A stretch of 64,000 bases of DNA from Candidatus Acidiferrum sp. (GCA_035317605.1 DATHGT010000133.1:5452-69451); one strand, 5' to 3'; numbered from the stretch's first letter, positions 24,750-41,976 are shown. Program-made: numbers and translations. Notes: generated from the letters alone by a model not told the origin.

Positions 24750-25929
24750 GGTCGACCGTCTCCTCGTAGACCGCCTCGTATTTGGCGGCCATGACCGGCA
24801 AGGCGAACTGCTGCTCGATGCGCCGGCGGGCCGCGCACCCCAGCCGGAGCCGTTCGTCGTCGTCCTCGAGGAGGGCCAGACAGGCGTCGGCGAGAGCTCG
24901 AGGGTCCCTGGGGGGAATCACGCGGCCCGTGTCCGCGACGAGGGACGCGGAATCCCCGACGTCGGTCACCACGCACGGCACGCCGCAGGCCATCGCCTCT
25001 CCGATCACGTTGGGAAATCCCTCGCCGAGCGAGGACGAGCAGGCCAAGTCGACCGCGGCGTGCACCCGCTGCACGTCGTCGCGGCGGCCGAGCAAGTGCG
25101 CGCGCCCCTGCAGGCCCGCCGCCCGCACCCACCCGGCGAGCTCCCGATTCTCCCCGGTGACGCCGTCACCGCACAGGACGAAGTGGACGTCCGCCCGCGC
25201 CGCCGCGATTCGCCGCGCGGCGTCGACGAACGTTTGGTGGTCCTTGTAGGGGTCGAAGCGGGCGACGAGGCCAACCAGCGGGGTGCCGGGAGCGAGCGCG
25301 AGCTCGCGACGCAGCGCCAGCCGGGAGCCGGGATCCGGCCGGAACGTCGAGACGTCGAACCCCGTCGGGATCACGGTCATCCGGGGCGCCGGATAGCCGA
25401 GCGACGCGTGCAGCTGGCGGCCGGCCTCCGAGTTACAGATGATCTTGCGAGGAACTTTCGAGGACAGCGCGACACAGGCGCGGACGGTGAGCCGGGTGAG
25501 GCGCGAGGTCCCCTCGGGGACGAGACTTCCCAGCTGCACGTTCCACACGACGGGAATCCGGCCGGCCAGGAGGGTGGCCAGGCCGCCGATCAAATCCGCG
25601 TGGTGCATCCACGTCTGGACGAGGTCGGGACGCCGGCGCCGCAGCAGGCCCGCCAATCGTAGGATTCCGGCGGGGTTCGGACGGCCCCGCCGCAGCCCGA
25701 GCGACTGCACGGGCACCCCCAGCGCGCGAATCCTGTCACCGATGGGACCGATGTTCGTGAGCGAGATCACGTCGCACGCGAAACGCCGGTGATCGATGGT
25801 GCTCAAAAGCTTGTAGAGGTTGACCTCGGCGCCGCCGGTCGACAGCGTGGTGATGACGTGGAGCAGGCGGATCGGCCGCGAGCTCATCCCTCGCCGAGGT
25901 CTCCCGCGCGTGTCCGGGGCGACGGTCAT
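24730..25929 (-). CDS. glycosyltransferase family 4 (GT-B)
   Basis: Inside the track ORF 24730..26148. The probable start is ATG 25929..25927 (ATGA overlap with the upstream stop); 25887 (MSSRPIRLLHVITTLSTGGAE) is also possible. The C-terminal block is GEGFPNVIGEAMACGVPCVVTDVGD. Confidence 0.75.
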   Translation of the reverse strand: MTVAPDTRGRPRRGMSSRPIRLLHVITTLSTGGAEVNLYKLLSTIDHRRFACDVISLTNIGPIGDRIRALGVPVQSLGLRRGRPNPAGILRLAGLLRRRRPDLVQTWMHHADLIGGLATLLAGRIPVVWNVQLGSLVPEGTSRLTRLTVRACVALSSKVPRKIICNSEAGRQLHASLGYPAPRMTVIPTGFDVSTFRPDPGSRLALRRELALAPGTPLVGLVARFDPYKDHQTFVDAARRIAAARADVHFVLCGDGVTGENRELAGWVRAAGLQGRAHLLGRRDDVQRVHAAVDLACSSSLGEGFPNVIGEAMACGVPCVVTDVGDSASLVADTGRVIPPRDPRALADACLALLEDDDERLRLGCAARRRIEQQFALPVMAAKYEAVYEETVDRVRNRR

Positions 25930-27209
25930 GCGCGGGAGCCGGACGGCGTCGGTGCGAGCAGCGTGCTCGTCCCGAGTCGCGCTTCGGCCCGCTGAGCCCA
26001 GACGGACAGGGTCTGCGTCAACAGGGCCAGCATCATGAACCCTGGCGCGCTGCCCCAGCCGTACTCCGAGAAGGCCAGGACCTGCGTGAGGGTTCCGAAC
26101 AGCAGCACCGCCATGATTCGCTGCCGTCCACGAGCCGCATCGACGCATCGGGCAAGGTAGGCGAACAACCGGAAGTACGCGACCACGGCCACGGCGATGC
26201 CCACGACGCCGCCCCGGACATACGCGCCCAAGAGCGCGCCCGCGTCCGTGGCCTCCACCCGCGTGCCCCAGAGCGAGCCTGCGCTCGCCTGGGCAGTCTC
26301 CGCCATCCAGCTGAGGCGCGCCAGCGCAGAACCGGTCTTCGAGAACGCGGTATACACCTCGCCGAGCTGGGCACTCATCTCCGCGATGGCGAAGACGATG
26401 ACTGGGACGTCAGCCAGCAGGACGATACCGATGCCCGCCGCGGTGACGATGAACGGAAGCGCGGCGGCCAGCCGCGTCCGTCGCGAGAAGATTCGCAGGA
26501 TCGGCCACAGGGCGGCGGAGGCGAGAATGGACAGCCAGACGGTGCCGGATGCCGCCAGGATCACCACAAACACGGCGATCGGGAGGGTGGCCCAGAACGA
26601 CAGGGCGCCACGCGCACCGAGAGCCAGGATGCCCGGGACCAGGAACGAGTAGATGAGCACAGAGGGCTCGGAGGCGAACGACTCGAATCGCGGAAACTCG
26701 TGCCCGGCGATGAAGATGGGGTACGGCTGGAGGAAGCCGAGATAATTGAGCGAGTGCGAGACCTCGACCGGGTCGGCCGAGGTGCCCGAGGTGTACGACG
26801 CATCGAGCGCCGCCGTGATCCCGGGATTGGTGGCGACGGCGACCGCTTGCAAGATCACCATCGACGAGAACACCGCCGCGACGACGACGATGCCGCGAAC
26901 GATGCGCCGGCTGTACGCCGGCCCCAAGCTGTCCACGATCGCGACGAGGACGAGCGCCAGGGCGGCATCCGCGATCCGCTCGACGGATGCCTCCTTCACG
27001 ACGTTCGCACAGAAATAGACCGCGGCGAGGACGAACAGCGGCTCCACCAGGAACGAACGGTGGCGCCGCCAGAGCAGCGGCAGCAACAGCCCCAGCGGGA
27101 GGAGGAGCACGACCTGCAACGATCGTCGATCGCCGATCGCGTTCAGGAATCCGAAGTTTCCAAACGCATAGAAGATGAGGGCGAGCAGGGACACGTAGAA
27201 GGCGGTCAC
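25926..27209 (-). CDS. polytopic membrane protein, Wzy-like (candidate O-unit polymerase)
   Basis: 427 aa with about 11 TM segments and one larger loop near the C-terminal third (AEMSAQLGEVYTAFSKTGSALARLSWMAETAQASAGSLWGTRVEATD). There is no enzymatic motif. The topology and the context next to GTs and Wzx suggest Wzy. Confidence 0.45.
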   Translation of the reverse strand: MTAFYVSLLALIFYAFGNFGFLNAIGDRRSLQVVLLLPLGLLLPLLWRRHRSFLVEPLFVLAAVYFCANVVKEASVERIADAALALVLVAIVDSLGPAYSRRIVRGIVVVAAVFSSMVILQAVAVATNPGITAALDASYTSGTSADPVEVSHSLNYLGFLQPYPIFIAGHEFPRFESFASEPSVLIYSFLVPGILALGARGALSFWATLPIAVFVVILAASGTVWLSILASAALWPILRIFSRRTRLAAALPFIVTAAGIGIVLLADVPVIVFAIAEMSAQLGEVYTAFSKTGSALARLSWMAETAQASAGSLWGTRVEATDAGALLGAYVRGGVVGIAVAVVAYFRLFAYLARCVDAARGRQRIMAVLLFGTLTQVLAFSEYGWGSAPGFMMLALLTQTLSVWAQRAEARLGTSTLLAPTPSGSRA

Positions 27210-27246: not shown

Positions 27247-28227
27247 TCACCGCCGGGGCTCCGGCACCCCGCCGGGCATCAGCGTGGTATCGCCCAGGAA
27301 CAGACCGAGCTTGGTGGCGATGCCGCGGGAGAGGGCGAACAGGCGCGGGGGCAGAACGAAATGGACGGCATCGATGAGCGCGAACAGTGGGAACCCCCGA
27401 CGGAGCTCGCGCTCGAGCGCGCGCACTCTCGCCCGCCCCCCTCTGGCGATCCGATACTGGAGGTGGAGGAGATACTTGAGATGCCGCCGACGGCAGGGGC
27501 GTGAGAAGCGGCCGGCGTGGCGGAGATAGGCCCGGCGATAACCGCGGTAGATGTCGTCGTACCGCCGGGAGATGCGGTCGCGCACCTCGTCGTGGTACGT
27601 GGCCAGGTGGTGCTGGAGCACGTGGATGGGGCCGACCTCGCTCATGCGCAGCCAGAAATCCCAGTCCTGGCAGGAGGCCAGGTCGTCGGTGATCCCGCCG
27701 CTCCGCCGAAGCGCGCTCCGGCGGGCCATGGCGAAGGAGAAGCTGCCGCACACGTTCCCCCACTGGAGCTCGTCGAGCGTCACCTCCGCGGGCGTGCTGG
27801 AACGCCTGCCCCCGATCTTCGCGCGGCGGGCGGTGTGCGCACCCTGTCTGACGAACAGGCAGGAGACCGCCACGTGCCGCGCGTGGGATTGCAGGAAGGA
27901 GACTTGACGCGACGTCTTGTCGGGCAACCACTCGTCGTCGTCGTCGAGGAACGCCACGAAATCGGCCGTCGCGCGGGCGATGCCGACATTGCGGGCGCGG
28001 GCGCCCCCCTGCCGAGCCTCGTGCCGGACGTAACGGAGCTGCAGGTCCGGGTGCGCAGCCGCGAAGGCCTTCACGGTCTCGCCGGTGGCGTCGGTCGACG
28101 CGTCGTCGACCACGATGACCTCGAGCGGCCGGTAGGTCTGACCCACGACGCTCTCCAGGGCGCGGCGCAGGAGCGCCGCGCGGTTCCTCGTGGGGATCAC
28201 GATCGAGACCACCGGCGTCGTGGACAT
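27247..28227 (-). CDS. glycosyltransferase family 2
   Basis: The start ATG 28227..28225 (MSTTPVVSIVIPTRNRA...) forms a TGATG overlap with the AsnB copy-2 stop. VVDDASTDAT and the DDDDEW (DXD) motif are present. Confidence 0.8.
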   Translation of the reverse strand: MSTTPVVSIVIPTRNRAALLRRALESVVGQTYRPLEVIVVDDASTDATGETVKAFAAAHPDLQLRYVRHEARQGGARARNVGIARATADFVAFLDDDDEWLPDKTSRQVSFLQSHARHVAVSCLFVRQGAHTARRAKIGGRRSSTPAEVTLDELQWGNVCGSFSFAMARRSALRRSGGITDDLASCQDWDFWLRMSEVGPIHVLQHHLATYHDEVRDRISRRYDDIYRGYRRAYLRHAGRFSRPCRRRHLKYLLHLQYRIARGGRARVRALERELRRGFPLFALIDAVHFVLPPRLFALSRGIATKLGLFLGDTTLMPGGVPEPRR

Positions 28228-30074
28228 CAGGCCGGGACCAGCACCTGGCGCCGCCACTCGGCCAACAGGGTCAGACCGAACAGGAGGTTGGCGTCACCGG
28301 ACGCTCCCCGGAGATCCGTCCAGCTCGCCGCGGCCGCCGTCACGTCGATGCGGTCGCGGAGGAATTCGTCGCTCTTCCAGACCCGGTCCCACGGCTCGTC
28401 GCTCTCCCGCGCCGCCTCGGCGAGCCAGTGGCCGACGGGGGCCCCGAATCCGCGCTTGGGGATCGCGAGCACTTCCTTCGGCAGGAGGTCACCGATGGCC
28501 TGCCGGAACAGCCGCTTGGTGGCCCCTCCCGCGACGCGATATCGGTCGGGCAGCGCGAACATCCATTCCACCAGCCGATGGTCGAGCAGCGGCACCCGGC
28601 CTTCCACCGACGCGGCCATCGTCATCTTGTCGAGGAGCGGCAGCAGGTCGCCGGCCAGGTACGTGTGCAGATCGAAATACGTCCGGCGGCTGACCGCGGT
28701 GACCAGCCGCGGATCGTGGAAGATCGGCGACAGCAGAGCGTCCAGTCGCTCGGTCAGGCGCCGCGTCCAGGCCGGGTCCCTCAGCAGACGACTCATGAGA
28801 TCGACACGTCCGGAGATCCGGCAGAGGTAGTCGACCACCGGGCTTCGCAGGCGCAGGGCCTGCGCGCTGCCGCCGGCCCCGAGCGCGAGGCCGGCGAGAC
28901 GGCGGAGGCCCCGCGGCATCGCCTCGAGACCGCGCCGCCACGCCTGGTCACTATAGCGGGGATAACCCCCGAACACCTCGTCGCCCCCGGTGCCGTTGAG
29001 AATGACGGTGATCCCGTCTTCGCGGGCCAGCCGCGACAGGAGCAGGGTCGGCACCGCCGCGGAATCGCAGACGGGCTCGTCGATGGAGGCGGCGACCTCG
29101 GGCAGCGCGGCGATCGCCGCCTTGGCGTCGAGGAGCAGCTCGCGATGGCGCGCGCCGTGGCGGGCGGCCACCATGCGCGCGGCCGGCCGCTCGTCGTAGA
29201 GGTGTCCCTCGAACCCGACCGAGAAGGTCCGCACCGGCTGGGTCACCTGCTCGGCCATCAGCGCGACCACGGTGCCGCTGTCCAGTCCGCCGCTGAGGAA
29301 GATGCCCAGCGGGACGTCGCTGCGCTGCTGGAGGCGAATCGCGTCGCGCAGCAGCTCCAGCAGGCGCTCCCTCGCCTCTCGCTCGTCGATCCGAGCGTCG
29401 CCGAAGCGCTCGACGTCCCAGTACCGTCGGGTCTCGATGCGGCCGTGTCGGTCGATCTTGAGGTAGTGCGCGGGCGGGAGCTTCCGGATCCCCTCGACGA
29501 GGCAGTCGGGGGCCGGGACGTACATCATGAGCAGGTACATGAGGAACGCGGTCTCGTCGATCGTGCGCCGGCCCGTCAGCTCGACGAGCGAGCGCAGCTC
29601 GGAGGAGAAGGCGAAGCGTCCGGGCTCGGCGACGTAGAACAGCGGCTTGATGCCGAGCCGGTCGCGGGCCACGAACAGCTCGCGCTCCCGCCGGTCCCAG
29701 ACGGCGAACGCGAACATGCCGTTGAGATCGGCGAGACAGGCCGGGCCCCGCTCCTCGTACAGGTGCAGCAGGACCTCGGTGTCGCTGTGCGTCCGGAACG
29801 TGTGCCGGCCGACCAAGTCGGCCCGCAGCTCGAGGAAGTTGTAGATCTCGCCGTTGAACACGATGCAGTAGCGCCCGTCCTCGCTCTCGATCGGCTGGTG
29901 CCCGCCCTTGACGTCGATGATCGAGAGGCGGCGGATGCCGAAGGTCAACCCGCCGTCCGTGAAGCTGCCCTGATCGTCCGGGCCACGGTGCACCATCCGG
30001 TCCAGCATCGACTGCAGCGCCCGCGTCTCAGGCGGGGCGCCGTCGAACCGGTGGATCCCGGCGATCCCGCACAT
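28227..30074 (-). CDS. asparagine synthetase (glutamine-hydrolysing)-like amidotransferase, copy 2
   Basis: 615 aa with MCGIAG and SGGLDSG. It is paralogous to 22833..24749 (roughly 45-50% identity by eye). Confidence 0.85.
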   Translation of the reverse strand: MCGIAGIHRFDGAPPETRALQSMLDRMVHRGPDDQGSFTDGGLTFGIRRLSIIDVKGGHQPIESEDGRYCIVFNGEIYNFLELRADLVGRHTFRTHSDTEVLLHLYEERGPACLADLNGMFAFAVWDRRERELFVARDRLGIKPLFYVAEPGRFAFSSELRSLVELTGRRTIDETAFLMYLLMMYVPAPDCLVEGIRKLPPAHYLKIDRHGRIETRRYWDVERFGDARIDEREARERLLELLRDAIRLQQRSDVPLGIFLSGGLDSGTVVALMAEQVTQPVRTFSVGFEGHLYDERPAARMVAARHGARHRELLLDAKAAIAALPEVAASIDEPVCDSAAVPTLLLSRLAREDGITVILNGTGGDEVFGGYPRYSDQAWRRGLEAMPRGLRRLAGLALGAGGSAQALRLRSPVVDYLCRISGRVDLMSRLLRDPAWTRRLTERLDALLSPIFHDPRLVTAVSRRTYFDLHTYLAGDLLPLLDKMTMAASVEGRVPLLDHRLVEWMFALPDRYRVAGGATKRLFRQAIGDLLPKEVLAIPKRGFGAPVGHWLAEAARESDEPWDRVWKSDEFLRDRIDVTAAAASWTDLRGASGDANLLFGLTLLAEWRRQVLVPA

Positions 30075-30077
30075 GGC

Positions 30078-31976
30078 TCAGCGCGCCTCCATTCCCTCGA
30101 CGAGCACGGTCATCACCCGCGAGGCCGGGAGCGTCACGCGGGCCCGCACCCGCGACGACAGCGTGGGGACAGCCTGACCATACTCCCCGTGATACCAGCC
30201 GAGCGGGAACGCGCCCCCCTCACCTCGATGATGCGACGTCTCGCACGTCGCCGGTCCGTCGGCTCCCTGGCACTGCACCAGCGCCGTGATCGTTCCAGCG
30301 GGCGTGGACACGGCGAGTCGATCCGGCGCCGCCGGCATCGGGTCGGATCCCGGCGCCCAGTGGAAGAACGCCTCGATCTCGGCCGGCCCCGAACCGGCGT
30401 AGCGGTCGTGAAGGGTGAAGCCGTCGGTGCGGCACGAGAGCGTGCGCTCGAATCGGACGCCCCGCCGCACGCGCTCGAAGCCGTCGTGGGCCACGACCAC
30501 CTCGACTCCGGCGGCGCTCACCTTGACGTCGGCGCGGCAGGAGGACCTCGTGTAGGCGGGTGGGAACCATCCCAGCCAGTCGTCGGGAAATGGCTCGAAC
30601 CCGTCGAGGGCTACCGAGTTGTGGGCGAAGGCCTGGACGGGGAATCGCGATCCGGCGTCCGTCGCGTAGCTGCGGCGTCCCACGTCGACGAGCAGCGGGC
30701 GACCCTCCAGGAACGCGCAGAAGGCCCCGCTGTCGTTGTGGCCATGGCTCGGGTGATCGGGGCGGCCGGTTCGCTCGATCCGCCAGAAGATCGTCAACGG
30801 TCCCACGTCGGTGCGATACCAGCCGCTCTCCGGAAAGGCCTCGACCGACGGCGCGGCCGATCGCTCGGCGCGCGGGGCTGCGGCGGGAGGCTCGATGAGA
30901 CGGCCCCAGCCACGCGGCGGACCGGGGGCCACGAGGTCGAGCAGCCAGGGCACCGTGCAGTCCGGCGACACGTCGCCGATCCGCGGGATGTCGACGGCCC
31001 CGTCGGGCGACTCCAGCAAGAAGAACCGGCAGCGATCGAGCATGCGCCGTCGATACGGCTCCGTCAGTCGGAGGACGCCGTCGTCTCCGACCGCCTCCGC
31101 CGCGCGGTGGATCTCCGCGACGGTGCGGGTGAGCAGGAAGTGATAGTGGGAGGAGCCTTCGCGGAGAAACCCGTCCTCGGTGACCAGGCGTGGCAGCATG
31201 CGCTCGAGGAGCGCGCGTCCGAGGGACGCGTACCGGTCCTGGTCCGTGGCCGCTCCGAAGAGGTAGAGCGCTCGCGCGTTGTTGACGAGGTGGTTGTTCG
31301 TGCGGTCGCCGTGATCCTCGAGGCGCCCGGCCAGGAACGCGCCCATCTCGCCCAGCGCGCCCACCAGCCGGCGCTCGGCGTCGGAGTTTCGCGGCGAGCA
31401 CGCGCGCGTCGCCGACAGGAACACCAGCGCGTTGGCGATGCGCTCGGACACCGAGTAGCTTTCCCAGGCCGGCGCGCCCGGGCGCGGCGGGCCACAGCGC
31501 TCGACCCACTGGAGCATGCGGTCCAGGATCCACATGGGGAGTTGTGGGCAGGAGTGCGTGGCGAGCAGGCGAAGCGCCCATCCCCAGCGGTGCAGGGCCA
31601 GGACGTCTTCGAGCTCCGCGAATTCGGCCGCCCACTCGGGGGCCGGCACCGCCGAGACGCTGGTGGTGACCAGCGGGAGATCCACCGGCGGGGGACACGC
31701 GACGTCACCACCGTTGACCGGCCACGGCCGAGCGAACCCGCGGAGGAACGACGCGCTCATCGCGGTCGGGGCACCGGAGGGCGGAAGCCCGTCCATGGCC
31801 GACCGGCCCGCCCGGCCCTGACGAAATGCGCGGCGGCGCTCGAGCAAGCGCAGCCCCTCGCGGACGGTATGGACGCCCCAGCCCAGGCGCCGCTCGGCGA
31901 TCACGCGGCGGAGATAGTTCCGCCATTCCGGTGTCGTGAACACCTGAAGTCGCGAGGGGCGCCGGAGCGGAGTCAC
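30078..31976 (-). CDS. heparinase II/III-like family protein (polysaccharide-modifying, alpha/alpha-toroid plus beta-sandwich)
   Basis: Track ORF 30078..32066. The probable start is GTG 31976..31974 in a GTGA overlap with the upstream stop. It contains NHLVNNARALYLFG and HGHNDSGAFCAFLEG, blocks characteristic of the Hepar_II_III family. Confidence 0.55.
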   Translation of the reverse strand: MTPLRRPSRLQVFTTPEWRNYLRRVIAERRLGWGVHTVREGLRLLERRRAFRQGRAGRSAMDGLPPSGAPTAMSASFLRGFARPWPVNGGDVACPPPVDLPLVTTSVSAVPAPEWAAEFAELEDVLALHRWGWALRLLATHSCPQLPMWILDRMLQWVERCGPPRPGAPAWESYSVSERIANALVFLSATRACSPRNSDAERRLVGALGEMGAFLAGRLEDHGDRTNNHLVNNARALYLFGAATDQDRYASLGRALLERMLPRLVTEDGFLREGSSHYHFLLTRTVAEIHRAAEAVGDDGVLRLTEPYRRRMLDRCRFFLLESPDGAVDIPRIGDVSPDCTVPWLLDLVAPGPPRGWGRLIEPPAAAPRAERSAAPSVEAFPESGWYRTDVGPLTIFWRIERTGRPDHPSHGHNDSGAFCAFLEGRPLLVDVGRRSYATDAGSRFPVQAFAHNSVALDGFEPFPDDWLGWFPPAYTRSSCRADVKVSAAGVEVVVAHDGFERVRRGVRFERTLSCRTDGFTLHDRYAGSGPAEIEAFFHWAPGSDPMPAAPDRLAVSTPAGTITALVQCQGADGPATCETSHHRGEGGAFPLGWYHGEYGQAVPTLSSRVRARVTLPASRVMTVLVEGMEAR

Positions 31977-33958
31977 AGGAGGCCCCGAGCCGTCAGGAAG
32001 CCGACGAGGCGGTCGTCGGCTCGGCCGTCGAGGACGTGGAACGTCCGGCGGAGCGCGGCCGGCCAAGCGGCCCGCAGCCGCGCGAGCACGGCCGGATCGA
32101 GCAACGCCTCGAGCGCCTCCGCCAGTCCGGCGGCGGAGTGCGCGAAGAGCGCGGCGTCCTTCATGTCGACCAGCGGCCCGATGTTGACGATCGCTCGATT
32201 GTCGAACACCACCGGTGGCCGGCCGAGGGCGATCGCCTCGAGGCCGGTCGTCGAATTGGTGAGCACCACCGCGTCGCTCGCGCGGATGTGTGCGTGGAGG
32301 TCGCTGTCGACGCCGAGGAGCCGCCAGCCGTGGCGCGGGCGGCCGCCGAAGAGACGCTGCACGTCGGCCGCGATGGGACAGTGATAGTGCGGCTTGAACA
32401 GGAGCACGAACTCCCCGGCTCCGTCGGCGGTGGCGCCGGCCAGCGCCTCGAGCAGGGCGAGCGAGTCGTCCCGGTCGCTGGAGCCGGCCACCAGCAGGAT
32501 GCGGCGCTCGAGGGGCAGATCAAGGCTCGCCCTCGCCTCGCGCGCGGGAGCCGCCTCGACCCTGAGCATGTTGTAGCGGACCGCGCCCACGACCTCGGAT
32601 CGCGTCTCGGGATAGCCGGTCGCCCGCATGATCTGAAGGGGCCAGTCCCCGGTCGCCAGGTAGTAGTCGGGCAGCGGCGTGTCGAGCCGGTCGTGGCCGG
32701 CGAGCGCCCGCTCGATTTCACCCTTGGCGAAGAAGAACATGAGCGTGTTCGACGACACGGTCGTGTGCTGAAAGGCGACCGTGCGGGTCGCGGTCCCCGA
32801 CGCCGCGTGCCAGATCGCGCGCTCCATGGGCTGGAACTCGCAGGGGTGCAGCACGAACGAGGGCCGGTGGGCGATCATCAGCCGACGCATGGCGGCGGCG
32901 AGCACGAGGTTCGTCGGCAGCTCGAAGCCCGTGAAGCTGCGGTCCAACTCCTCGCGCCACAGCGGCGTCACGTCCCACTCCGCGAAGTGAGCCGACAGAC
33001 GGCGCCGCAACCTCCGATAGTGCCACGTCCATCGGAGCCCATCCGCTCCGGCCAGCGCGGAGCATAGCTCGCCGACGGTGGCGAACAACAGGACCGGCAC
33101 GATCCGTCCGTGATCGAACGCCCGCCGGATGTTCCGACGGCGCCGGAGCAGGCGCCACGGCCACAGAGTGAGCAGCACCACCTGCCACATCGGCCCCCGG
33201 CTGCGCAGGGCCGGGAACACCGGCTCGAGGTTCCGCTCGCGGACGACCTCCGAGTCGGCCGCCTCGTACAGCACGGGGTATCGGCTGAACACCACCGAGC
33301 GCACCGCCGAATCCGGCCGGGGACGGCGGAGACCGATCATGGCCAGCACCAGACGGTTGCCGAGCGTCTGGATGCCCCATGCCGTGCGCATGGCCACGAA
33401 GCGCAACCAGAAATGCCTGAGACCGCTCAGCCGGGTACGAAGTCCCCGGCCGCGGGCCGGCCGTCTCGTCATCTCCTCGACCGCCAGCCCCCGCGCGCGC
33501 AGTCCGGACACCAGGCAGGCGGCCAGAGATCCGTCGACCAAGTCGAGCCGGGCACGTGGGAATCCGCGGCGGGCCAGCACCCCCTCGACCAGGAGCAGGG
33601 CGTAGAGCCGGTTGAGGAAGGGCGTCCTCAGCGGGCTCTTCTCACACGCATCGGTGAACCACCACGCGCTCGTGCCGTCCCGCTCGAGCAGCGTCAACAG
33701 CGAGGGGCCGGCCCCGATGCGCTGACGGACGGCCTCGTCGAGAAACGCGGGGTAGAGCCCGCGCAGCTGCTCGAGCGCCCGCTCGGAGACGTCCTCGACG
33801 GGAAGGACCGTGGCGCTCGCGCGGGTCAGGGCTTCGGCGAGGTGGGCCACGTAGAGGCTCGGGACGATCCCGAGGGGAAGGATCGTCACCGGACCCCGGT
33901 CCGACGGAATCCCCGCCGGATCGAGGTGATCGACGATGAGCAAGAGGGGCTCGCTCAC
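31973..33958 (-). CDS. large (661 aa) putative GT-B-like transferase of the KpsC/KpsS (capsule_synth) or TagF-like type; candidate nonulosonic-acid or polyol-phosphate transferase
   Basis: The C-terminal half has RILLVAGSSDRDD ... FVLLFKPHYHCP ... DAVVLTNSTTGLEAIALGRPPVVFDN, resembling the two-His 'KPH.H' and terminal donor-binding blocks of TagF/Capsule_synth folds. No Pfam-grade motif can be confirmed by eye. It is a remote paralog of 44359..46287. Confidence 0.4.
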   Translation of the reverse strand: MSEPLLLIVDHLDPAGIPSDRGPVTILPLGIVPSLYVAHLAEALTRASATVLPVEDVSERALEQLRGLYPAFLDEAVRQRIGAGPSLLTLLERDGTSAWWFTDACEKSPLRTPFLNRLYALLLVEGVLARRGFPRARLDLVDGSLAACLVSGLRARGLAVEEMTRRPARGRGLRTRLSGLRHFWLRFVAMRTAWGIQTLGNRLVLAMIGLRRPRPDSAVRSVVFSRYPVLYEAADSEVVRERNLEPVFPALRSRGPMWQVVLLTLWPWRLLRRRRNIRRAFDHGRIVPVLLFATVGELCSALAGADGLRWTWHYRRLRRRLSAHFAEWDVTPLWREELDRSFTGFELPTNLVLAAAMRRLMIAHRPSFVLHPCEFQPMERAIWHAASGTATRTVAFQHTTVSSNTLMFFFAKGEIERALAGHDRLDTPLPDYYLATGDWPLQIMRATGYPETRSEVVGAVRYNMLRVEAAPAREARASLDLPLERRILLVAGSSDRDDSLALLEALAGATADGAGEFVLLFKPHYHCPIAADVQRLFGGRPRHGWRLLGVDSDLHAHIRASDAVVLTNSTTGLEAIALGRPPVVFDNRAIVNIGPLVDMKDAALFAHSAAGLAEALEALLDPAVLARLRAAWPAALRRTFHVLDGRADDRLVGFLTARGLL

Positions 33959-34599
33959 CGTTCTCCCAGACCGACGAGCGCGGCGGAGAGCGAGCGCAGG
34001 TCGTCGACGACGGTGACCTCGGCCGGGAAGGGCGAGGCGGTCCCCGGCGGCACGCGCCCCACGAACGAGACTCCGGCGTCGCGGGCGCCCGTGAAGTCGC
34101 TCCAGGCGTCCCCGACCATCACCACCGTGGTCCGGTCGAACCCCGCGGTGCCGAGGATGCCGCGGATGATCTCCGCCTTGCTCGCCGGGCTGCCGAATAC
34201 CGCCTTGAAGTACGGGTCCAGACGGCGACGCGCGACGATACGCGCCAGCTCGGCGTCGGGCGTGCCCGACGCGACGTAGAGCGGCATGGGGGCGGTCTCC
34301 AGGAATTCGCGCGCGCCGTGAACGAGCGGGACCGCCACCACCTGGTCTTCGACCAGCGCGGAAAACCGCTCCCCCAGCTCGTGCTCTTCCCCGGGACCGA
34401 GGGGACGACGCAGGATCTCGCGATACGCGTAGCGGAATTTCTCGAAGCGCGAGATGCCGACGTGTCGCCGATGGTAGGCCACCACCGCTTCCGCGGCGTC
34501 CGGACCCCAGGGCGCGAAGAGCGCGCGGAACGCCTCGGTCTTGACGTCGGCCGACTCGACGATGACGCCGTCGAAGTCGAGCACGACGGCTTGAATCAC
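33955..34599 (-). CDS. HAD-superfamily phosphatase (beta-phosphoglucomutase-like subfamily IA)
   Basis: The real start is GTG 34599..34597 (VIQAVVLDFDGVIVESAD...), in a GTGA overlap with the upstream stop. HAD motif I is DFDGV and motif IV is MVGDAWSDFTGARDAG. The track ORF 33955..35400 carries 267 spurious N-terminal codons. Confidence 0.7.
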   Translation of the reverse strand: MIQAVVLDFDGVIVESADVKTEAFRALFAPWGPDAAEAVVAYHRRHVGISRFEKFRYAYREILRRPLGPGEEHELGERFSALVEDQVVAVPLVHGAREFLETAPMPLYVASGTPDAELARIVARRRLDPYFKAVFGSPASKAEIIRGILGTAGFDRTTVVMVGDAWSDFTGARDAGVSFVGRVPPGTASPFPAEVTVVDDLRSLSAALVGLGER

Positions 34600-35366
34600 A
34601 CGCTGGCTCCGCGACGCTCGTCGCCCCGGCCCGTCAGCAGGTCCGAGGGCACGCCGAGCTCGAGGCGGACGTTCTCCTCGCGGGCGTCGGCCGACCGGTG
34701 CGCCGCGAACACGGTGAAGGCGAGACGCTCGTACGGCGTCACCGCGGTACGGGAGGGGGGGCCCCAGTACCCATAGCCGACCAGCATATCGGGGCCGAGC
34801 CCGGCCAGCAGCCCGATCGCCTCGTGGACATTGAACACCACGTAGTTCGCCACTTCGGCACCCGGGTCGTCGCCCTCGAACACGATGCGCTGGCGGCTCA
34901 CCGCGGGGTCCGTCGTCCCCGCCCCATCCGTCAGCCGGAGCGACAGGATCAGGAGACCGCCCGGCGCGACGCAGGCCCACAGGCTCCGGATCGTCTCGAT
35001 CGGCGCGAGGTTCCAGTCCACGCAGCTCAACGACACCACCCACTGAAACCGCGCGGAGCCGCTCGGCGTCGTTCCCACGTCGGCACAGATGAAGGTCTGC
35101 CAGGGGCGGGCGCGGCCCTGGGCCACGGAGATAGCCTGGGGATTGACGTCGACCCCCACGTACCGATCGAGCGTGGAGAACCGCTCCTGAAGGGCCAGTC
35201 CGAGCCCGCCGGCGGCGCAGCCGGCGTCGAGCACCGAGCGGGGCGGCCCGAACCTGGCCGCGACCTGTTCGAAGACCGTCCGCTCGGAGGGATAGAACTC
35301 CTCCCAGCGGAGCCGGTGGCCTCCGTAGAACCGGGCGATCTCGTCGGTGCGATACGTCTTGTTCAT
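34596..35366 (-). CDS. class I SAM-dependent methyltransferase
   Basis: The real start is ATG 35366..35364 (MNKTYRTDEIARFYGG...) in an ATGA overlap. Motif I is VLDAGCAAGGLGLAL. Confidence 0.7.
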   Translation of the reverse strand: MNKTYRTDEIARFYGGHRLRWEEFYPSERTVFEQVAARFGPPRSVLDAGCAAGGLGLALQERFSTLDRYVGVDVNPQAISVAQGRARPWQTFICADVGTTPSGSARFQWVVSLSCVDWNLAPIETIRSLWACVAPGGLLILSLRLTDGAGTTDPAVSRQRIVFEGDDPGAEVANYVVFNVHEAIGLLAGLGPDMLVGYGYWGPPSRTAVTPYERLAFTVFAAHRSADAREENVRLELGVPSDLLTGRGDERRGASV

Positions 35367-36268
35367 TTCGCCTCGAGCCCCGCGGCCCGCTCGCGACCAC
35401 CGACGACCTCGTACATGTCGGCGAGACACTGTAGGAGCCCTTGGCCGAGATCGAGATACGAGGTGCCGACCAGCTTCTGGGCCACCTTCGGCGTGAAGGA
35501 ATAGGGAGTCAACCGATAGTGCACGTCGTCGTCGGAGACGGGCTGGAAGTGGATCTCGACGCGATTGTCGAGGATCTCGCGGATCATCTCCAGCAGCTCG
35601 GCGAACTTCATCCGGTGCGGACCCGTGATCAGGCAGTGCGTGTTCGCGAACTCGTCGGCCAGGGCCTGCACGCTGAGGCACGCCGCGTCCTTCACGTGCA
35701 CGTATTCCCGCATCTCCTCCCCCGTTCCCTGGCACACGATCCGGCCCGTGGTCAGCGCCTGGTGCAGATACCGGTAGACGCTGTTGCGCCCATCGGCACG
35801 GGGGCCGTAGACGGTCCCGTAGCGCAGGATCGTGTACCCCAGGCCGTAGCGACGCGCGTACTCTTCGATGTAGAGCTCGGCCGACTGCTTGCTACAGCGA
35901 TAGAACCCGCCGGCCCGGCTGTACACGTAGACCGTGCTCGCGTAGACGTACCGCTGGAGCTGCCGTTGCACGGCGGCCTCGAGCAGGATCGCGTTGCCCA
36001 GGACGTTCTGCTTGACCGTGTCGATGGGGCGTTCGGCCGCCGCGTCGAGATCGGCGATGCCCGCGAAGTTGTACGCGCACTGCGCCGCTTCGAGGGCGCG
36101 GTCCACGGCCACCGGATCGAGGACGTCGGCGACGATCATCTTCTGCGTCGGTCGCCGATAGGGCGACGGGGTGACGTCGAAGAGGCTGACCTGGTGGCCG
36201 GCATCGGTGAGGGCGTCGGCGACGTGGCTGCCGAGATAGCCGCTGCCCCCAAAAACGACGACGTTCAT
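35363..36268 (-). CDS. NAD-dependent epimerase/dehydratase (extended SDR)
   Basis: Start ATG 36268..36266 (MNVVVFGGSGYLGSHV...) in an ATGA overlap. YxxxK-type catalytic region YRCSK. Confidence 0.8.
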   Translation of the reverse strand: MNVVVFGGSGYLGSHVADALTDAGHQVSLFDVTPSPYRRPTQKMIVADVLDPVAVDRALEAAQCAYNFAGIADLDAAAERPIDTVKQNVLGNAILLEAAVQRQLQRYVYASTVYVYSRAGGFYRCSKQSAELYIEEYARRYGLGYTILRYGTVYGPRADGRNSVYRYLHQALTTGRIVCQGTGEEMREYVHVKDAACLSVQALADEFANTHCLITGPHRMKFAELLEMIREILDNRVEIHFQPVSDDDVHYRLTPYSFTPKVAQKLVGTSYLDLGQGLLQCLADMYEVVGGRERAAGLEAK

Positions 36269-37359
36269 CGGGCCATTCTCTGCTCGACGGCCTCCTGGAC
36301 CACCGCCTCGAGGGCGCTGACGAATCCCGCCATGATCTCGGCGTCGCCCAAGGTCACCCGAATGCAATCCTGGACCGCCGGCGCGCCGAAGGGACCTCGG
36401 ACGAGATAGCCGCGGCCGCGCAGCGCATCGACGATCACCGCCGGGCTCACGCTTCCGGGAAGCCGCACGAGCTGGAAGTTCGTCGGGCAGCCCGGCACGT
36501 CGAGACCCAGACGGGTCGCCCCCTCGCAGAGCACTCGACGGCCCTCCTCGATCTCGCGCCGGAACGCCTCACCCATCTCGGGGTGATCGAGCACGTAGCA
36601 CCCCAGACTGATCGCCACGCTGTTGACCTCGTAGGATCCGCGAACCCTCCGGACCGCGTCCACGATCCCGGGGTTCCCGGCCAGGTAGCCGAGCCGGAGC
36701 CCGGCCAGGCCGCCGACCTTGGAGAACGTCCGCGTCACGACGACGTTGTCGAACTCCGTGACCAGGGACAGGGCGGTGATGGGATGGAACGGAAAGTACG
36801 CCTCGTCGACGATGAACAGGGCGCCGACGGCGGCGGCGGCCGACGCGACCTCACGCAGCTCCGCGAGGCTGACCACGGTCCCCGTCGGCTGGTCAGGATT
36901 CGGCAGCGCGACCAGCCGGGGACGCTGCCGGACCTTCGAGATGAGCAGGTCCAGGTCCAGCCGGCGGTCGCGACCGTACGCCACCGTGTCGGGCACCGCC
37001 TGGAACATTCGCGTGTAGATGGCGTACATGGCGTAGGTCGGGTCCGGCGTGACGACCCGATCACCCGGCCGGACGTAGGCATGGAACAGCACGCGGATCG
37101 CCGCGTCGGACCCCGGCGTCAGATGAAGATGGTCGACGGGAAGCTCGAGCTCACGACTCAGACGGGCGTAGAGCGGCGAAGGATCCGGATACGCGCACAG
37201 CGTCTCCGGCGTGATCTCCGACAGCATCGCACGCACTGTCGGCTCGGGAAACGGCGTGACCCGCTCGTTCCGGTCCAGGCGCACGAAGGCCAGGCGCTCG
37301 GCCATGGCGTCGTCGACGCGGTGGATGGCGAGAAGGTGAGGATTGGGTTCCGGCCTCAT
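36265..37359 (-). CDS. class I/II PLP-dependent aminotransferase (HisC/CobD-like)
   Basis: Start ATG 37359 with a perfect AAGGAGG 6 nt upstream on the minus strand. The PLP-Lys motif is TRTFSKVGGLAGLRLGY. Confidence 0.8.
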   Translation of the reverse strand: MRPEPNPHLLAIHRVDDAMAERLAFVRLDRNERVTPFPEPTVRAMLSEITPETLCAYPDPSPLYARLSRELELPVDHLHLTPGSDAAIRVLFHAYVRPGDRVVTPDPTYAMYAIYTRMFQAVPDTVAYGRDRRLDLDLLISKVRQRPRLVALPNPDQPTGTVVSLAELREVASAAAAVGALFIVDEAYFPFHPITALSLVTEFDNVVVTRTFSKVGGLAGLRLGYLAGNPGIVDAVRRVRGSYEVNSVAISLGCYVLDHPEMGEAFRREIEEGRRVLCEGATRLGLDVPGCPTNFQLVRLPGSVSPAVIVDALRGRGYLVRGPFGAPAVQDCIRVTLGDAEIMAGFVSALEAVVQEAVEQRMAR

Positions 37360-37428
37360 GCGTCCTCCTTCATGATCGGAAAGTGACCGCGGTGCCGCGG
37401 GTCGACCCATCGCGCCGGCACGCCCGCG

Positions 37429-38361
37429 TCATGGCTCGAGCCCCTGCGCCCACTCGACCATCCTGCGTAGCCCTTCGTCGAGCGGCGTCACCGGTCGCCA
37501 GCCGAGGTCCTGCTCGGCCCGGCTGATGTCCGCGCACAGTCCGAACTGGTCGCCGATGTGGCCAGCCAGTTCCTGGACCGGGTAATCGGGCTCGCGGCCG
37601 AGGGCGACGGCCAGCCGGGAGATGAGATCGCCCACCTCCGTGCGCTCGCCGGCCCCGATGTTGTACTCGAGGGCCGGAGTGCTCGGCCGGTACAACGCCC
37701 GGAGCCACGCGTCGATCACGTCGTCGATGTAGACGAAGTCGCGGAAGCGCTTGAGCGACCCCGTGACCGGCACCGGCACACCCTGCAGCAGGTACGCGAG
37801 GTAGATGCTCGCCATGCCCTGCCGCAAGTTGCCGAGGTTCTGGCCGGGACCGTAGACGCTGAACATCCGGAAGCTCGTCACGCTCAGGCCCTCGGCCGCG
37901 GCCAGACGCAGGACATGTTCGGAGGTCAGCTTGGAGACTCCGTAGTAGGACAGCGGCACGCACGGCGCGGTCTCCCGGACCGGAAGCTCGTCGGGGCTGC
38001 CGTAGACCGCCATCGAGCTGGCGTAGATGAACCGTGGCGTGCCCTGCTCCAGGCACCAGCGAGAGAGGAGCACGGTGGAGCCGGCGTTCGCCTGGAGGTC
38101 GTAGTACGGTACCTCCGCCGAGGCGGGTCCCGAAGACTGGGCAGCCAGGTGGCACACGGCGTCGAAGCGCGGCGGCGGCACCTGGTCCAGAAAGTTGGAC
38201 CGGTCGAGATCGAGCTCGACGATCCGCGCCGCCCGCGGAACGGCGGCGCGCTGCCCGGTTCGCATGTTGTCGATCACGACCACGTCGTGGCCATCCTCGA
38301 CGAGCCGGCGCGCCAGATGGCTCCCGATGAAGCCGGCGCCGCCGGTCACGAGCACGCGCAT
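37429..38361 (-). CDS. NAD-dependent epimerase/dehydratase (UDP-sugar 4-epimerase-like)
   Basis: The real start ATG 38361..38359 (MRVLVTGGAGFIGSHLARRL) forms a TGATG overlap. YGVSK catalytic motif. Confidence 0.8.
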   Translation of the reverse strand: MRVLVTGGAGFIGSHLARRLVEDGHDVVVIDNMRTGQRAAVPRAARIVELDLDRSNFLDQVPPPRFDAVCHLAAQSSGPASAEVPYYDLQANAGSTVLLSRWCLEQGTPRFIYASSMAVYGSPDELPVRETAPCVPLSYYGVSKLTSEHVLRLAAAEGLSVTSFRMFSVYGPGQNLGNLRQGMASIYLAYLLQGVPVPVTGSLKRFRDFVYIDDVIDAWLRALYRPSTPALEYNIGAGERTEVGDLISRLAVALGREPDYPVQELAGHIGDQFGLCADISRAEQDLGWRPVTPLDEGLRRMVEWAQGLEP

Positions 38362-39464
38362 CAGCGCCCGCCTTCCCCGGCGGCCGGCGGCGAAACTCGA
38401 TAGAGCGCGGCCAGCCGGTCGTCCTTCCGGCCCAGGCGCCGGGACGCGACGTCTTCGGCGAGCCGCACCTCGCGCCCGTCCTCGGCCGACCGATAGATCG
38501 CGTTGAGCAGCCGGAGCGCCTGCGTCCCCTCCTCGAACGAGATCGGGTGGGGGCGGCCGTCGAGCAGATCGGCGACCACGTCGAGCAGGAACGGCCGGTG
38601 GCCCAGGCCATAGGCGTTGGGAAAGATCTCGGAGTGCAGCGCGCGCTCGTCCGGAGCCGGGGTGAACACGGCCAGCTCGTTGGCGGCGATGCCCTGGAGC
38701 ACGGCGGTGCCGCGCTCGGCCAGGACCGAGATCGACGCCTCGAAGTCGTCGGGGCGCGCGGCCGTGGTCACCTCGATCACGCCCAGCGCTCCGCTGGCGA
38801 ACCGGATGGTGGCCACCGCGGTGTCTTCGACCTCGATGTCGACGAGCTGGGTCGCGGTGCGCGCGTTCACCGCGTCGATGTCGCCCACGATGTAGCGCAC
38901 GAGGTCGATGTAGTGGATCCCCTGGTTGGTCAGCGCGCCGCCGTCCATGGCCCACGTCCCCCGCCACGGGTCGCGCCGGTAGTAGGCCTGGGGCCGGCAC
39001 CAGCGCACGCGCACGGTGCCGAGCACCGGACGGCCCAGCTCGCCGGAGGCGAGCGCGGCGCGGACCTTGCGCACGGCCTTGTTGTAGCGGTTCTGGTACA
39101 CGGGAAAGATCTTGACCCCCGCGCGCTCCGCCGTCCGCCTGAGCGTCTGCACGTCCTCCCAGGCCAGGGCCATGGGCTTTTCGAGGATCACGTGCTTGCC
39201 GTAGCGCTCCATCGCGTCGAGCGCGTGCTCGGGGTGCATCCCGCTCGGGGTGAGGATGTTGACGACGTCGATCTGCTCCCGGCGCAGCATCTCGTGATAG
39301 TTGGTGTAGGCGGGCACGCCGTGCTTGCGCGCGTACGCCTCCGCCCGCTCGGGCTGAAGGTCGCAGACCGCGGCCAGCCGGGCCCGCGGGAGATCGGCGA
39401 GGTGATCGGCGTGGTGACCGGCGATCCGTCCGCACCCGACGACCGCGAAGCTCAGGGGGGCCAT
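38361..39464 (-). CDS. Gfo/Idh/MocA family NAD(P)-dependent sugar oxidoreductase
   Basis: The real start ATG 39464..39462 (MAPLSFAVVGCGRIAGHHA...) forms a TGATG overlap. N-terminal Rossmann fold plus the EKP block (HVILEKPMA). Confidence 0.8.
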   Translation of the reverse strand: MAPLSFAVVGCGRIAGHHADHLADLPRARLAAVCDLQPERAEAYARKHGVPAYTNYHEMLRREQIDVVNILTPSGMHPEHALDAMERYGKHVILEKPMALAWEDVQTLRRTAERAGVKIFPVYQNRYNKAVRKVRAALASGELGRPVLGTVRVRWCRPQAYYRRDPWRGTWAMDGGALTNQGIHYIDLVRYIVGDIDAVNARTATQLVDIEVEDTAVATIRFASGALGVIEVTTAARPDDFEASISVLAERGTAVLQGIAANELAVFTPAPDERALHSEIFPNAYGLGHRPFLLDVVADLLDGRPHPISFEEGTQALRLLNAIYRSAEDGREVRLAEDVASRRLGRKDDRLAALYRVSPPAAGEGGR

Positions 39465-40210
39465 CACTTCGCGGGCTCGATACCGTGCGCGCGAAGCCAG
39501 AATTCCAGCATGGGCACCTGCCACTCGTAGTCGACGTCGAAGCCGCCCCATTGCTGGAGCGGGAAGATCTTCTGCCCCATCCACTTCTGGGGCAGCAACC
39601 CGTCGTGGAGGTGCTCCAGGCAGCGCGGCCTCACGATCGAGGTGCCCATGTCGGCGAACCAGACGTCGCCCTGGGAGTCGCGATCGCAGTTCAGGGTCGC
39701 GGGATCACCGAAGGTCTCGAAGGGGACGAACGGATGGAGCAGCCCGTCCCCGCCGATCTTGCGGGCGCGGAGCGGGCTCCACATGTTGTAGCGCGAGACG
39801 GTGACGGCCGAATCGTAGTCCGGATGCTCCCGGAGCACGTCGATCCCCTCTTCGAGAGTCTTGGCGGTGATGGTGGCCGCGTTGGCCATCAGCAGCACGA
39901 TCAGCTCGACCTCGCCCCCGTCCCGTCGGACCTCGTCGCGAATCACCTCGTAGCCGTGGACGTAGGCGTCTTCGCCCAGCGCCTGGTTCGTGGCCAGGTG
40001 GGCGGGCCGGTCGATGATCCGGGCGCCGTACTCCGTCGCGATGGCCTTCAAGCGCGGGGAGTCGGTCGAGAGGTACACGCGGTCCACGCGCTTGGCGTCG
40101 CGGGCCGCCATGAGCGGATACGCGACGAGGGGCCGGCCCAGGAGCGGAAGGACGTTCTTGCCTGGAAACCCCGAGGACCCTTCTCGTCCCAGCATCAGTG
40201 CACAGATCAC
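39464..40210 (-). CDS. acylneuraminate/CMP-sugar cytidylyltransferase family (NeuA/KdsB-like, CTP_transf_3)
   Basis: 248 aa. ICALMLGREGSSGFPGKNVLPLLGRPLVAYPL matches the sugar-binding N-terminal signature of CMP-nonulosonate/Kdo synthetases. Confidence 0.75.
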   Translation of the reverse strand: MICALMLGREGSSGFPGKNVLPLLGRPLVAYPLMAARDAKRVDRVYLSTDSPRLKAIATEYGARIIDRPAHLATNQALGEDAYVHGYEVIRDEVRRDGGEVELIVLLMANAATITAKTLEEGIDVLREHPDYDSAVTVSRYNMWSPLRARKIGGDGLLHPFVPFETFGDPATLNCDRDSQGDVWFADMGTSIVRPRCLEHLHDGLLPQKWMGQKIFPLQQWGGFDVDYEWQVPMLEFWLRAHGIEPAK

Positions 40211-40316
40211 GGTCGACCTCCTTCGTCGTCTCTCCGTTCACGGTCGAGCGCCCGTCCGGCGTCACTGTATGCGACCCGGAAGTTTTCGTCTAGCAACGGT
40301 CCCGAGTTCCGCCCGT

Positions 40317-41126
40317 TCACCGGATCGGCTCCAGCTCGTAGTACTGAAGCTTCGGAAAGTAGTTCGGGTACATGAGCGTGCCCAGCCACCACTGGGTGAG
40401 CGGGTTGACCGGCTCCGGGAACACCTGGACCCGACTCTGGTACACGATCTTCACCCGCGCGTAGCTCAGGACCTTGGAAAAGTCCGCCTCCGAGAACTCG
40501 AAGATATGGCTCTCGACGTTGGGCCACCCGTGCGGCCGGTGCGTGATTCGCGTCCGCAGCATCCACGGGATGGTCAGGAAGATCCGCCGCGCGGCGACCC
40601 GGATCAGCTCGTCGAGCGCGGCCAAGGGGCTGCGGACGTGCTCGAGGGTCTCGCAGCTGACGACGTAGTCGAACGCCTGGTCGGCGAACGGCAGACGCTC
40701 GAGGTCGGCCAGGCACGCCTGGGAACCATCGCTCCTGATCTTGCGGGCGCAGGCCAGCAGGATGTTGACCCCCACCCCTCGCTTGACGCCCAGCCGGGAC
40801 AGGAAGAATCCATCCGAGGCGGCGGCGTCGAGCACGCGCGCGTCGCCCACCGTGCCCACGCGCCGGCGCAGCATTCCGGTGAGCTCGTACAACTGGGACG
40901 CCAGGTGCAACTGCTTGAACTCTCCGTGAAGCTCCTCGTGTCCCCAGTGCCCTTCGACGATCCGCTGGCCCTCGCGGCTCCACCACTCCCGGAAGTCGAC
41001 GTCCCGCGCCAGCTTCCGGCGGTACGCGCGCGTCGCCAGCCCGTGCCACAGCCGCTCCGGCTGGAGGCCCGCGCGCGCCGCGACGCTCCGAAGTCTGTGG
41101 CGAAGCGCGGAGGCGACCGGCGTCAT
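40317..41126 (-). CDS. class I SAM-dependent methyltransferase
   Basis: The real start ATG 41126..41124 (MTPVASALRHRL...) is in an ATGA overlap. The track ORF 40317..41942 has 272 spurious N-terminal codons. Motif VLDAAASDGFFLS and the acidic motif FDYVVSCETLEH are present. Confidence 0.65.
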   Translation of the reverse strand: MTPVASALRHRLRSVAARAGLQPERLWHGLATRAYRRKLARDVDFREWWSREGQRIVEGHWGHEELHGEFKQLHLASQLYELTGMLRRRVGTVGDARVLDAAASDGFFLSRLGVKRGVGVNILLACARKIRSDGSQACLADLERLPFADQAFDYVVSCETLEHVRSPLAALDELIRVAARRIFLTIPWMLRTRITHRPHGWPNVESHIFEFSEADFSKVLSYARVKIVYQSRVQVFPEPVNPLTQWWLGTLMYPNYFPKLQYYELEPIR

Positions 41127-41974: not shown

Positions 41975-41976
41975 CG

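Follow-up and report, generated by a model that had tools for sequence, protein, structure and literature searches.

A candidate ulosonic acid transferase of the GT-B fold in a surface-polysaccharide locus of Candidatus Acidiferrum

To our knowledge, few transferases for pseudaminic acid (Pse), legionaminic acid (Leg) and related ulosonic acids are known, i.e. the Maf proteins, KpsS1 (family GT118) and the Tannerella enzymes, and this shortage limits both the prediction of glycans from genomes and the enzymatic synthesis of such sugars. Here we analyse 64,000 nucleotides of Candidatus Acidiferrum sp. (GCA_035317605.1 DATHGT010000133.1:5452-69451; the whole stretch is termed the window) and, within it, the gene at positions 31973-33958 on the minus strand (the target; 661 codons plus stop), whose product is a GT-B-fold protein from a clade sister to the family TIGR04326 and a candidate transferase for a sugar of this type activated by cytidine monophosphate (CMP). 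An earlier annotation of the window, the original prediction, had described this gene as the first of two KpsC/TagF-like transferases of roughly 650 amino acids (aa) and as a candidate for the missing pseudaminyltransferase of the locus.

All genes from ~21.7 kilobases (kb) to 57 kb lie on the minus strand, to which every window coordinate below refers unless the plus strand is named. In the direction of transcription the locus opens with the Pse pathway and modification genes (46345-56949), namely PseB, PseC, PseG, NeuB/PseI, PseH, a fusion of a CTP_transf_3 cytidylyltransferase with an aldo/keto reductase, a short-chain dehydrogenase/reductase (SDR), a methyltransferase and the acetamidino module WbuX/HisH/WbuZ. 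The Pse pathway is complete and, together with the acetamidino module, predicts an amidino-modified Pse; the cytidylyltransferase-reductase fusion (50589-52232) is unusual. Directly downstream lies a gene for a 642-aa LIC12162-like protein (44359-46287), followed by a PhyH dioxygenase, a protein with ten transmembrane segments, two methyltransferases, a second CTP_transf_3 gene, a Gfo/Idh/MocA oxidoreductase, an SDR, a HisC/CobD-like pyridoxal phosphate-dependent enzyme, another SDR, a methyltransferase, a HAD phosphatase and the target. Beyond the target are a heparinase II/III-like gene and an AsnB-like amidotransferase gene (together 28227-31946), a GT2 gene, an 11-segment Wzy-like protein, a GT4 gene, a second AsnB and a second GT4. 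The second cytidylyltransferase (39464-40210) is NeuA-like, matching NeuA in the PDB at E 2e-13, and is the candidate maker of the target's donor. It belongs to a sub-cluster at 35363-44378 in which we recognise the NeuA-like gene, the Gfo/Idh/MocA gene, two SDRs, the HisC/CobD-like enzyme, three methyltransferases, PhyH and HAD; this sub-cluster contains no sugar-acid synthase of its own. The window as a whole holds two cytidylyltransferases, both of CTP_transf_3 type, one NeuB-type synthase and two GT-B proteins with an HP motif, the cytidylyltransferase count resting, for the first 21 kb and last 7 kb, on phmmer searches with CTP_transf_3 queries only. Phmmer searches of the unassigned window genes with locus-derived queries found no HpcH aldolase, 2-hydroxyacid dehydrogenase or KdsB.

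The window is ~69% G+C and long spurious open reading frames (ORFs) are frequent in it. Even so, the target is a genuine gene, not a product of the high G+C, because its G+C at the third codon position (GC3) is 0.90 (GC1 0.73, GC2 0.51), its start is coupled to the upstream stop, its homologs are full length and its structure model is confident. The exact ORF given in the original prediction was recovered: its GTG start codon shares nucleotides with the stop codon of the HAD gene upstream (GTGA), and a GGAG stands ahead of it. Plus-strand ORFs overlapping the target have the antisense pattern, GC1 > GC3. One such open frame, 1318 codons on the plus strand at 28428-32384, stands opposite three real genes and has GC1 0.85 and GC3 0.74; it is therefore a high-GC artefact. 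The placement between a HAD phosphatase and a heparinase-like gene was likewise correct, with the refinement that a 481-aa 'HAD' ORF (33955-35400 region) proved on GC3 frame analysis and Pfam to be a frame artefact over two genes, a HAD-IA phosphatase of ~230 aa (33955 to ~34650), translationally coupled to the target, and upstream of it, in a separate frame, an S-adenosylmethionine (SAM) methyltransferase gene (34596 to ~35375). The idea that the N-terminal 260 aa of the 'HAD' ORF were a fused aldolase was rejected accordingly, as they correspond to the methyltransferase gene in the other frame.

Two proteins, at 41977-43665 and 25926-27209, have no Pfam or NCBIfam match at E <= 0.01 and carry ~10 and 11 hydrophobic segments, respectively; these Wzx/Wzy-like polytopic neighbours of the target probably represent the flippase Wzx and the polymerase Wzy. 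The first (562 aa) had been entertained as a third GT-B relative and was rejected, being polytopic and without HHalign similarity; the second has homologs at two of the homolog loci described below (L004 and L015).

An identical 661-aa protein is already on record as a hypothetical protein from a Candidatus Acidoferrum metagenome-assembled genome (MAG), and 6-7 metagenomic proteins match the target over its full length at 52-85% identity. Word-indexed searching, even with a profile, returned only 7-9 close relatives, so that an exhaustive search was needed, in which a profile of the close homologs was scored against 1.84 billion cluster representatives. This yielded 2508 representatives at E <= 1e-3, 811 at E <= 1e-10 and 187 at E <= 1e-30; most of these proteins are 620-690 aa long and align end to end. 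A tblastn search of the target against plasmid records matched nothing, and the single sequence met only chance HisF matches among PDB sequences.

The AlphaFold2 model of the target, built on a 129-sequence alignment, has a predicted local distance difference test score (pLDDT) of 95.2 and a predicted template modelling score (pTM) of 0.94. It divides into an N-terminal domain (aa 1-215; 33314-33958), comprising a Rossmann-like alpha/beta domain (aa 1 to ~165) and a long linker helix (aa 175-207), a GT-B N-lobe that is probably the acceptor side (aa 216-470; 32549-33313), and a GT-B C-lobe that forms the nucleotide-donor domain (aa 471-661; 31976-32548). No transmembrane segment is predicted. 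We propose that the enzyme is soluble or peripheral and has three domains, with catalysis residing in a canonical GT-B glycosyltransferase part. The core consists of two Rossmann-like lobes, of which the C-lobe is the nucleotide-binding one, as is canonical for GT-B, and Foldseek gives the same answer, so the transferase fold expected in the original prediction is borne out and an unrelated fold is not indicated; GT4, GT28 and GT1 enzymes are among the structural matches. The C-lobe is the source of weak matches to Capsule_synth, BFO_1060, TIGR04396, Epimerase_2, LpxB and TagF. A second glycosyltransferase module was considered and rejected, as HHalign comparison of aa 1-215 with aa 216-470 and with aa 471-661 returned Prob < 1, i.e. 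no internal duplication, and the N-terminal domain gives only generic Rossmann matches; the dual-domain, KpsC-type organisation previously suggested is thereby contradicted.

With Pfam, the target has only a sub-threshold Glyco_trans_1_4 match on its C-lobe. Among families it matches TIGR04326 best (O_ant_LIC13510, 'surface carbohydrate biosynthesis protein', NCBIfam; E 3.5e-37, aa 315-619), a 602-position model of similar length and architecture whose function, like that of the target clade, is uncharacterised. All 26 relatives examined match TIGR04326 (best E 8.4e-41), and ten rescanned individually score 72-139 bits; because scores fall under the curated cutoff of 250 bits, we place the target clade as a sister of TIGR04326 and not within it. 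A second likeness, confined to model positions ~196-362, is to NF046086, the BFO_1060 family, whose C-terminal half is matched by 15 of the 26 relatives (best E 4.3e-13) and, among the ten rescanned, at up to 48.8 bits (E 5.5e-13; curated cutoff 200 bits). In this family are Tanf_01245 and TFUB4_00887 of Tannerella forsythia; when they are deleted, the O-glycan loses its terminal Pse or Leg derivative (PMC5420450). The Tannerella enzymes share with the target family an HP motif, a GT-B/TagB-like assignment and a position beside a nonulosonic acid pathway, but are only ~445 aa long and lack a counterpart of the target's N-terminal domain.

Conservation was counted over the 129 family sequences unless stated, with smaller alignments of 26 (A3) and 33 sequences. 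In the N-terminal domain, the WWFTDACEKSPLR motif (aa 99-111; 33626-33664) is a WW..EKSPxR-type block in which W99, W100 and E106 are kept in at least 90% of the 129 sequences and are invariant in both smaller alignments, K107 and R111 being invariant in A3. The N-lobe carries EFQPME (aa 374-379; 32822-32839), with E374 in 128/129, Q376 and P377 each in 121/129 and E379 in 122/129 sequences; it is a candidate catalytic base region. G437 and G458 are kept in at least 90% of sequences (G458 in 128/129), and R461 (32576-32578), a candidate carboxylate or phosphate ligand, is the only residue invariant in 129/129. After the first C-lobe strand, ~26 residues before the HP histidine, stands D498 (32465-32467), within S-S-D-R-D-D at 493-498, a position that is acidic (E or D) in 125/129. 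The two C-lobe motifs named in the original prediction are both present: KPHYH (aa 522-526; 32381-32395) is an HP-type motif (K/R522 in 128/129, H524 in 126/129; family consensus K-x-H-P at 522-525), and the terminal donor block NSTTGLEA (aa 568-575; 32234-32257; E574 in 124/129) is a phosphate/ribose-binding loop typical of GT-B C-lobes. The HP motif is a signature common to CMP-sialic acid transferases and beta-Kdo transferases, its histidine acting on the CMP phosphate (PMC10148158, PMC5420450).

Scans of genome and metagenome collections gave 37 distinct loci with a homolog, of which 20 extend upstream for 1.5 kb or more and were used for counts. A CTP_transf_3 gene lies within 10 kb in 18 of these 20 (a raw count) and is adjacent or one gene away in 13-14. 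The curated cutoff of the NCBIfam KdsB subfamily is exceeded by three such genes, and the linked cytidylyltransferases are all of KdsB/NeuA (CTP_transf_3) type, none being TagD-, TarI- or IspD-type. The lineages with linked loci are Acidobacteriota, Nitrospirota, Omnitrophota, Saganbacteria and Desulfotomaculaceae (Firmicutes), besides unassigned metagenome contigs, and direct adjacency across them is hard to explain by chance. HAD homologs recur beside the target homologs. Close homologs also keep the order target, AsnB, heparinase-like, GT4, Wzy; the syntenic heparinase II/III-like and AsnB-like genes (L001:2506-6373; L002:2502-6304; L004:11861-15891) suggest a conserved tailoring of uronic acid (amidation, possibly C5 chemistry) tied to the target transferase.

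Among the homolog loci we found a recurrent cassette of seven genes, in which an HpcH/HpaI pyruvate aldolase, a HAD phosphatase and two successive SDRs are followed by a KdsB-like cytidylyltransferase, a D-2-hydroxyacid dehydrogenase and, last, the TIGR04326-like target homolog (L015:198-7102; L016:346-6308; L017:5166-11851; L021:2714-9415; variants in L024, L006 and L012). It looks like an apparently undescribed route to a CMP-activated 3-deoxy-2-ulosonic acid that comes with its own transferase; in the literature we found nothing linking HpcH aldolases to cytidylyltransferases.

The LIC12162-like protein at 44359-46287 is the second large transferase of the original prediction, and its existence is confirmed, although it is no close paralog of the target. 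It has a weak match to TIGR04331 (LIC12162 family transferase; TIGR04331/PF27859) and its BLASTP match to the target (E 0.066) is not significant, whereas in HHalign it matches the target family at Prob 94.9 and E 4.5e-8 when used alone and at Prob 98 and E 2e-13 after addition of one homolog, over 283-316 columns that span the whole GT-B core. By these profile comparisons the two proteins are distant homologs. The LIC12162 family, also uncharacterised, resembles the target in its QH, HP and S-T-x-x-x-E/H-A blocks, in size and in often occupying the same loci, but the window's member lacks the N-lobe EFQPxE motif. Co-occurrence of LIC12162-like and TIGR04326-like genes is described in Herbaspirillum (PMC6679464), and the two types also stand together in L004 and the P0004 contig. 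A Nitrospirota MAG has a LIC12162-like gene immediately upstream of the target homolog, and on another contig LIC12162, Wzx, a radical SAM enzyme, an aminotransferase, CTP_transf_3 and further genes precede it.

Taken together, the evidence tips, if modestly, towards the target being a GT-B glycosyltransferase that uses a CMP-activated 2-ulosonic acid, a judgement that includes the case of a Pse transferase acting in this locus. Attachment of an ulosonate to a surface polysaccharide is probable because the family is almost always found beside genes for CMP-activated acidic keto-sugars, and an ulosonate donor is the best supported because this gene context recurs across phyla and the family resembles the Tannerella Pse/Leg transferases. 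The full Pse gene set and the two CTP_transf_3 genes of the window add to this support. The analysis establishes the gene, its fold, its motifs and how far they are conserved, its family relationships and its gene context; donor, acceptor and stereochemistry are inferred, as are the roles of single residues, which we take from conservation and by analogy with the named HP-motif families. In the proposed mechanism, the C-lobe would bind the cytidine-nucleotide donor through the S/T-rich loop and E574 of NSTTGLEA, H524 of KPHYH would assist departure of the CMP phosphate, R461 would probably pair with the sugar carboxylate or phosphate, and the N-lobe acids E374 and E379, or else D498, may engage the hydroxyl of the acceptor or else the anomeric carbon. 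For this locus, the donor may be derived from pseudaminic acid or may be what the NeuA-like sub-cluster makes (39464-40210 through to the HAD gene), and the acceptor would most likely be a sugar of a repeat unit linked to undecaprenyl diphosphate in a Wzx/Wzy-type polysaccharide.

Several observations weigh against this interpretation. The target scores 128 bits against the TIGR04326 cutoff and only 12.6 bits (E 0.056) against NF046086, so it belongs formally to neither family, and the literature gives no characterised member of the target family or TIGR04326; for TIGR04326, LIC13510, TIGR04331 and 'surface carbohydrate biosynthesis protein' it yields one genome paper, which places such genes beside neuABC. 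Although H524 is conserved, the proline of the HP motif, present at position 525 in 89/129 sequences, is a tyrosine in the target clade, which reads H-Y. The best sequence and Foldseek matches among solved structures are UDP-sugar 2-epimerases and not CMP-sugar transferases. Gene context is correlation only, the nearest cytidylyltransferase in the window lies 5.5 kb upstream of the target instead of adjacent to it, and the LIC12162-like homolog is better placed than the target for Pse transfer.

This last point bears on the narrower proposal that the target is the pseudaminyltransferase of this locus and, with CMP-Pse as donor, places a derivative of Pse (probably the one with a 7-acetamidino group) on the repeat unit. 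The complete PseB/C/G/H/I set with its acetamidino module, and the resemblance of family members' C-lobes to the Tannerella Pse/Leg transferases, speak for it. However, the LIC12162-like protein follows the Pse/acetamidino genes directly, the position that the Tannerella transferase takes relative to its own pathway, while the target lies at a distance of 12 kb, beyond a second cytidylyltransferase gene that is NeuA-like and has its own tailoring genes. Elsewhere, most of the family is found with KdsB-like genes and HpcH aldolases and not with NeuB/Pse genes. On grounds of core homology and position, the LIC12162-like protein is thus no weaker a candidate for Pse transfer than the target; by position, it pairs with the Pse genes and the target with the NeuA-like sub-cluster. 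We judge the narrower proposal possible but doubtful. Of the nonulosonate assignment made originally, then, the general part, a (non)ulosonate donor, is the one best supported by context and family likeness, whilst 'the missing pseudaminyltransferase' is too specific.

Somewhat further from the evidence is an ordinary GT-B enzyme using a UDP-, GDP- or dTDP-sugar, whose link to ulosonic acids would be no more than a shared locus. The weak Glyco_trans_1_4 match and the several SDR epimerases/dehydratases of the locus that make nucleotide diphosphate sugars are consistent with this, but KdsB-like genes stand immediately beside family members in many unrelated lineages, CMP donors are indicated by the K-x-H-P motif and by the likeness of the C-lobe to BFO_1060 and Capsule_synth, and three conventional GT2/GT4 genes are already present in the locus, and we regard this explanation as unlikely.

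The kinship with KpsC and TagF that the original prediction proposed fares worse. KpsC/KpsS (GT107), WbbB (GT99) and KpsS1 (GT118) are retaining Kdo and Pse transferases (PMC12887879, PMC10148158), and their group is defined by a QxxxD motif with an Asp nucleophile (PMC10148158); were the target a true member (GT107, GT99 or GT118), it would act by double displacement through a covalent Asp adduct. Like the target, these enzymes have the HP-motif histidine, an S-S/T-x-G-L-E-A donor loop and a CMP-ulosonate context. Capsule_synth (PF05159) passes its gathering score of 20 marginally in three close homologs (P0005, P0007 and P0004; 30.1, 25.2 and 20.3 bits, C-lobe only), the family profile matches KpsC structures at E 2e-4, and the target's donor loop, NSTTGLEAIALG, aligns with NSSVGLEAILTG of WbbB, its best single-sequence PDB match though not a significant one. 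The nearly invariant acidic D498 also sits at roughly the place of the QxxxD Asp relative to the HP motif. Against membership, the target itself has no PF05159 match at E <= 0.01, and neither it nor the 129-sequence family has a conserved Gln ahead of the C-lobe acidic residue. The fold of the KpsC/WbbB group is highly modified and that of the target canonical; KpsC and WbbB are missing from the top 50-60 matches in both structural match lists, and KpsC has two tandem modules where the target has one. We consider such an enzyme quite improbable.

A TagF-type phosphotransferase, adding a polyol phosphate or sugar phosphate from a CDP-linked donor, would agree with the profile matches to TagF (E 1.3e-3) and TarL (0.05), with the similar K-x-H-P block and size, and with the phosphatase, dehydrogenase and cytidylyltransferase genes nearby. 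However, TagF and TarL belong to PF04464 (Glyphos_transf), which matches neither the target (E <= 0.01) nor four homologs (E <= 0.1), and TagF, at a Foldseek E of ~1.5e-8, is placed below many ordinary GT-B enzymes in the structural rankings. As regards a TagD-, TarI- or TarJ-type gene that would supply a CDP-polyol donor, the only cytidylyltransferases found in the window were the two CTP_transf_3 genes (the ends being covered by phmmer with CTP_transf_3 queries only), and all those linked to family members are of the KdsB/NeuA type that makes CMP-ulosonates. This account is very improbable. From the profile, PDB and donor-loop comparisons, the resemblance to KpsC and TagF is therefore real only at the level of the HP-motif GT-B superfamily.

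Least credible is that the target is no transferase but a nucleotide-sugar hydrolase or 2-epimerase-like enzyme of donor synthesis: its best profile match in the PDB is UDP-ManNAc3NAcA 2-epimerase (E 1e-8, ahead of a GT28 enzyme at 2.5e-6 and LpxB at 8e-5), UDP-GlcNAc 2-epimerases head the Foldseek ranking (E 1.6e-10) and Epimerase_2/NeuC shares the H-P block at the start of the C-lobe, but the match spans only the inter-lobe and early C-lobe region around that motif at 10-18% identity, the target has an additional N-terminal domain and ~650 aa against ~370 aa for the epimerases, EFQPxE and WW..EKSPxR are not epimerase motifs, and PseG is already present in the locus.

Returning to the preferred interpretation, transfer of a CMP-activated ulosonic acid, its present status is that of a well-founded prediction and not a discovery, and in kind it is unsurprising, the target being a divergent representative of a family that is catalogued but unstudied, and its surface-polysaccharide locus being a typical one. 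What is added to the original prediction is the family-wide link to CMP-ulosonates, including the aldolase cassette, and a rival candidate for Pse transfer. If the family does move CMP-ulosonates, ~800 sequence clusters (profile E <= 1e-10) from many phyla would join the short list of such transferases and provide a handle on the apparently undescribed aldolase-based pathway, and in this locus one of two candidate enzymes would be assigned to one of two CMP-activated donors. More tentatively, TIGR04326-like and LIC12162-like proteins might together constitute a large, unrecognised glycosyltransferase family dedicated to CMP-ulosonic acids, many of its members wired to an aldolase cassette that would yield a new 3-deoxy-2-ulosonic acid, no NeuB- or KdsA-type synthase being required, and the window protein would then be an Acidobacteriota branch recruited to a Pse-type donor.

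Another family of ~600-650-aa proteins, with a weak match to TIGR04417 ('PFTS motif'), resembles the target family no more than marginally, in the C-lobe (HHalign Prob 57); its members adjoin KdsB-like genes in five of the loci (L009:6532-8481; L010:2799-4616; L011:6201-8048; L012:5043-6791; L034:6190-8058).

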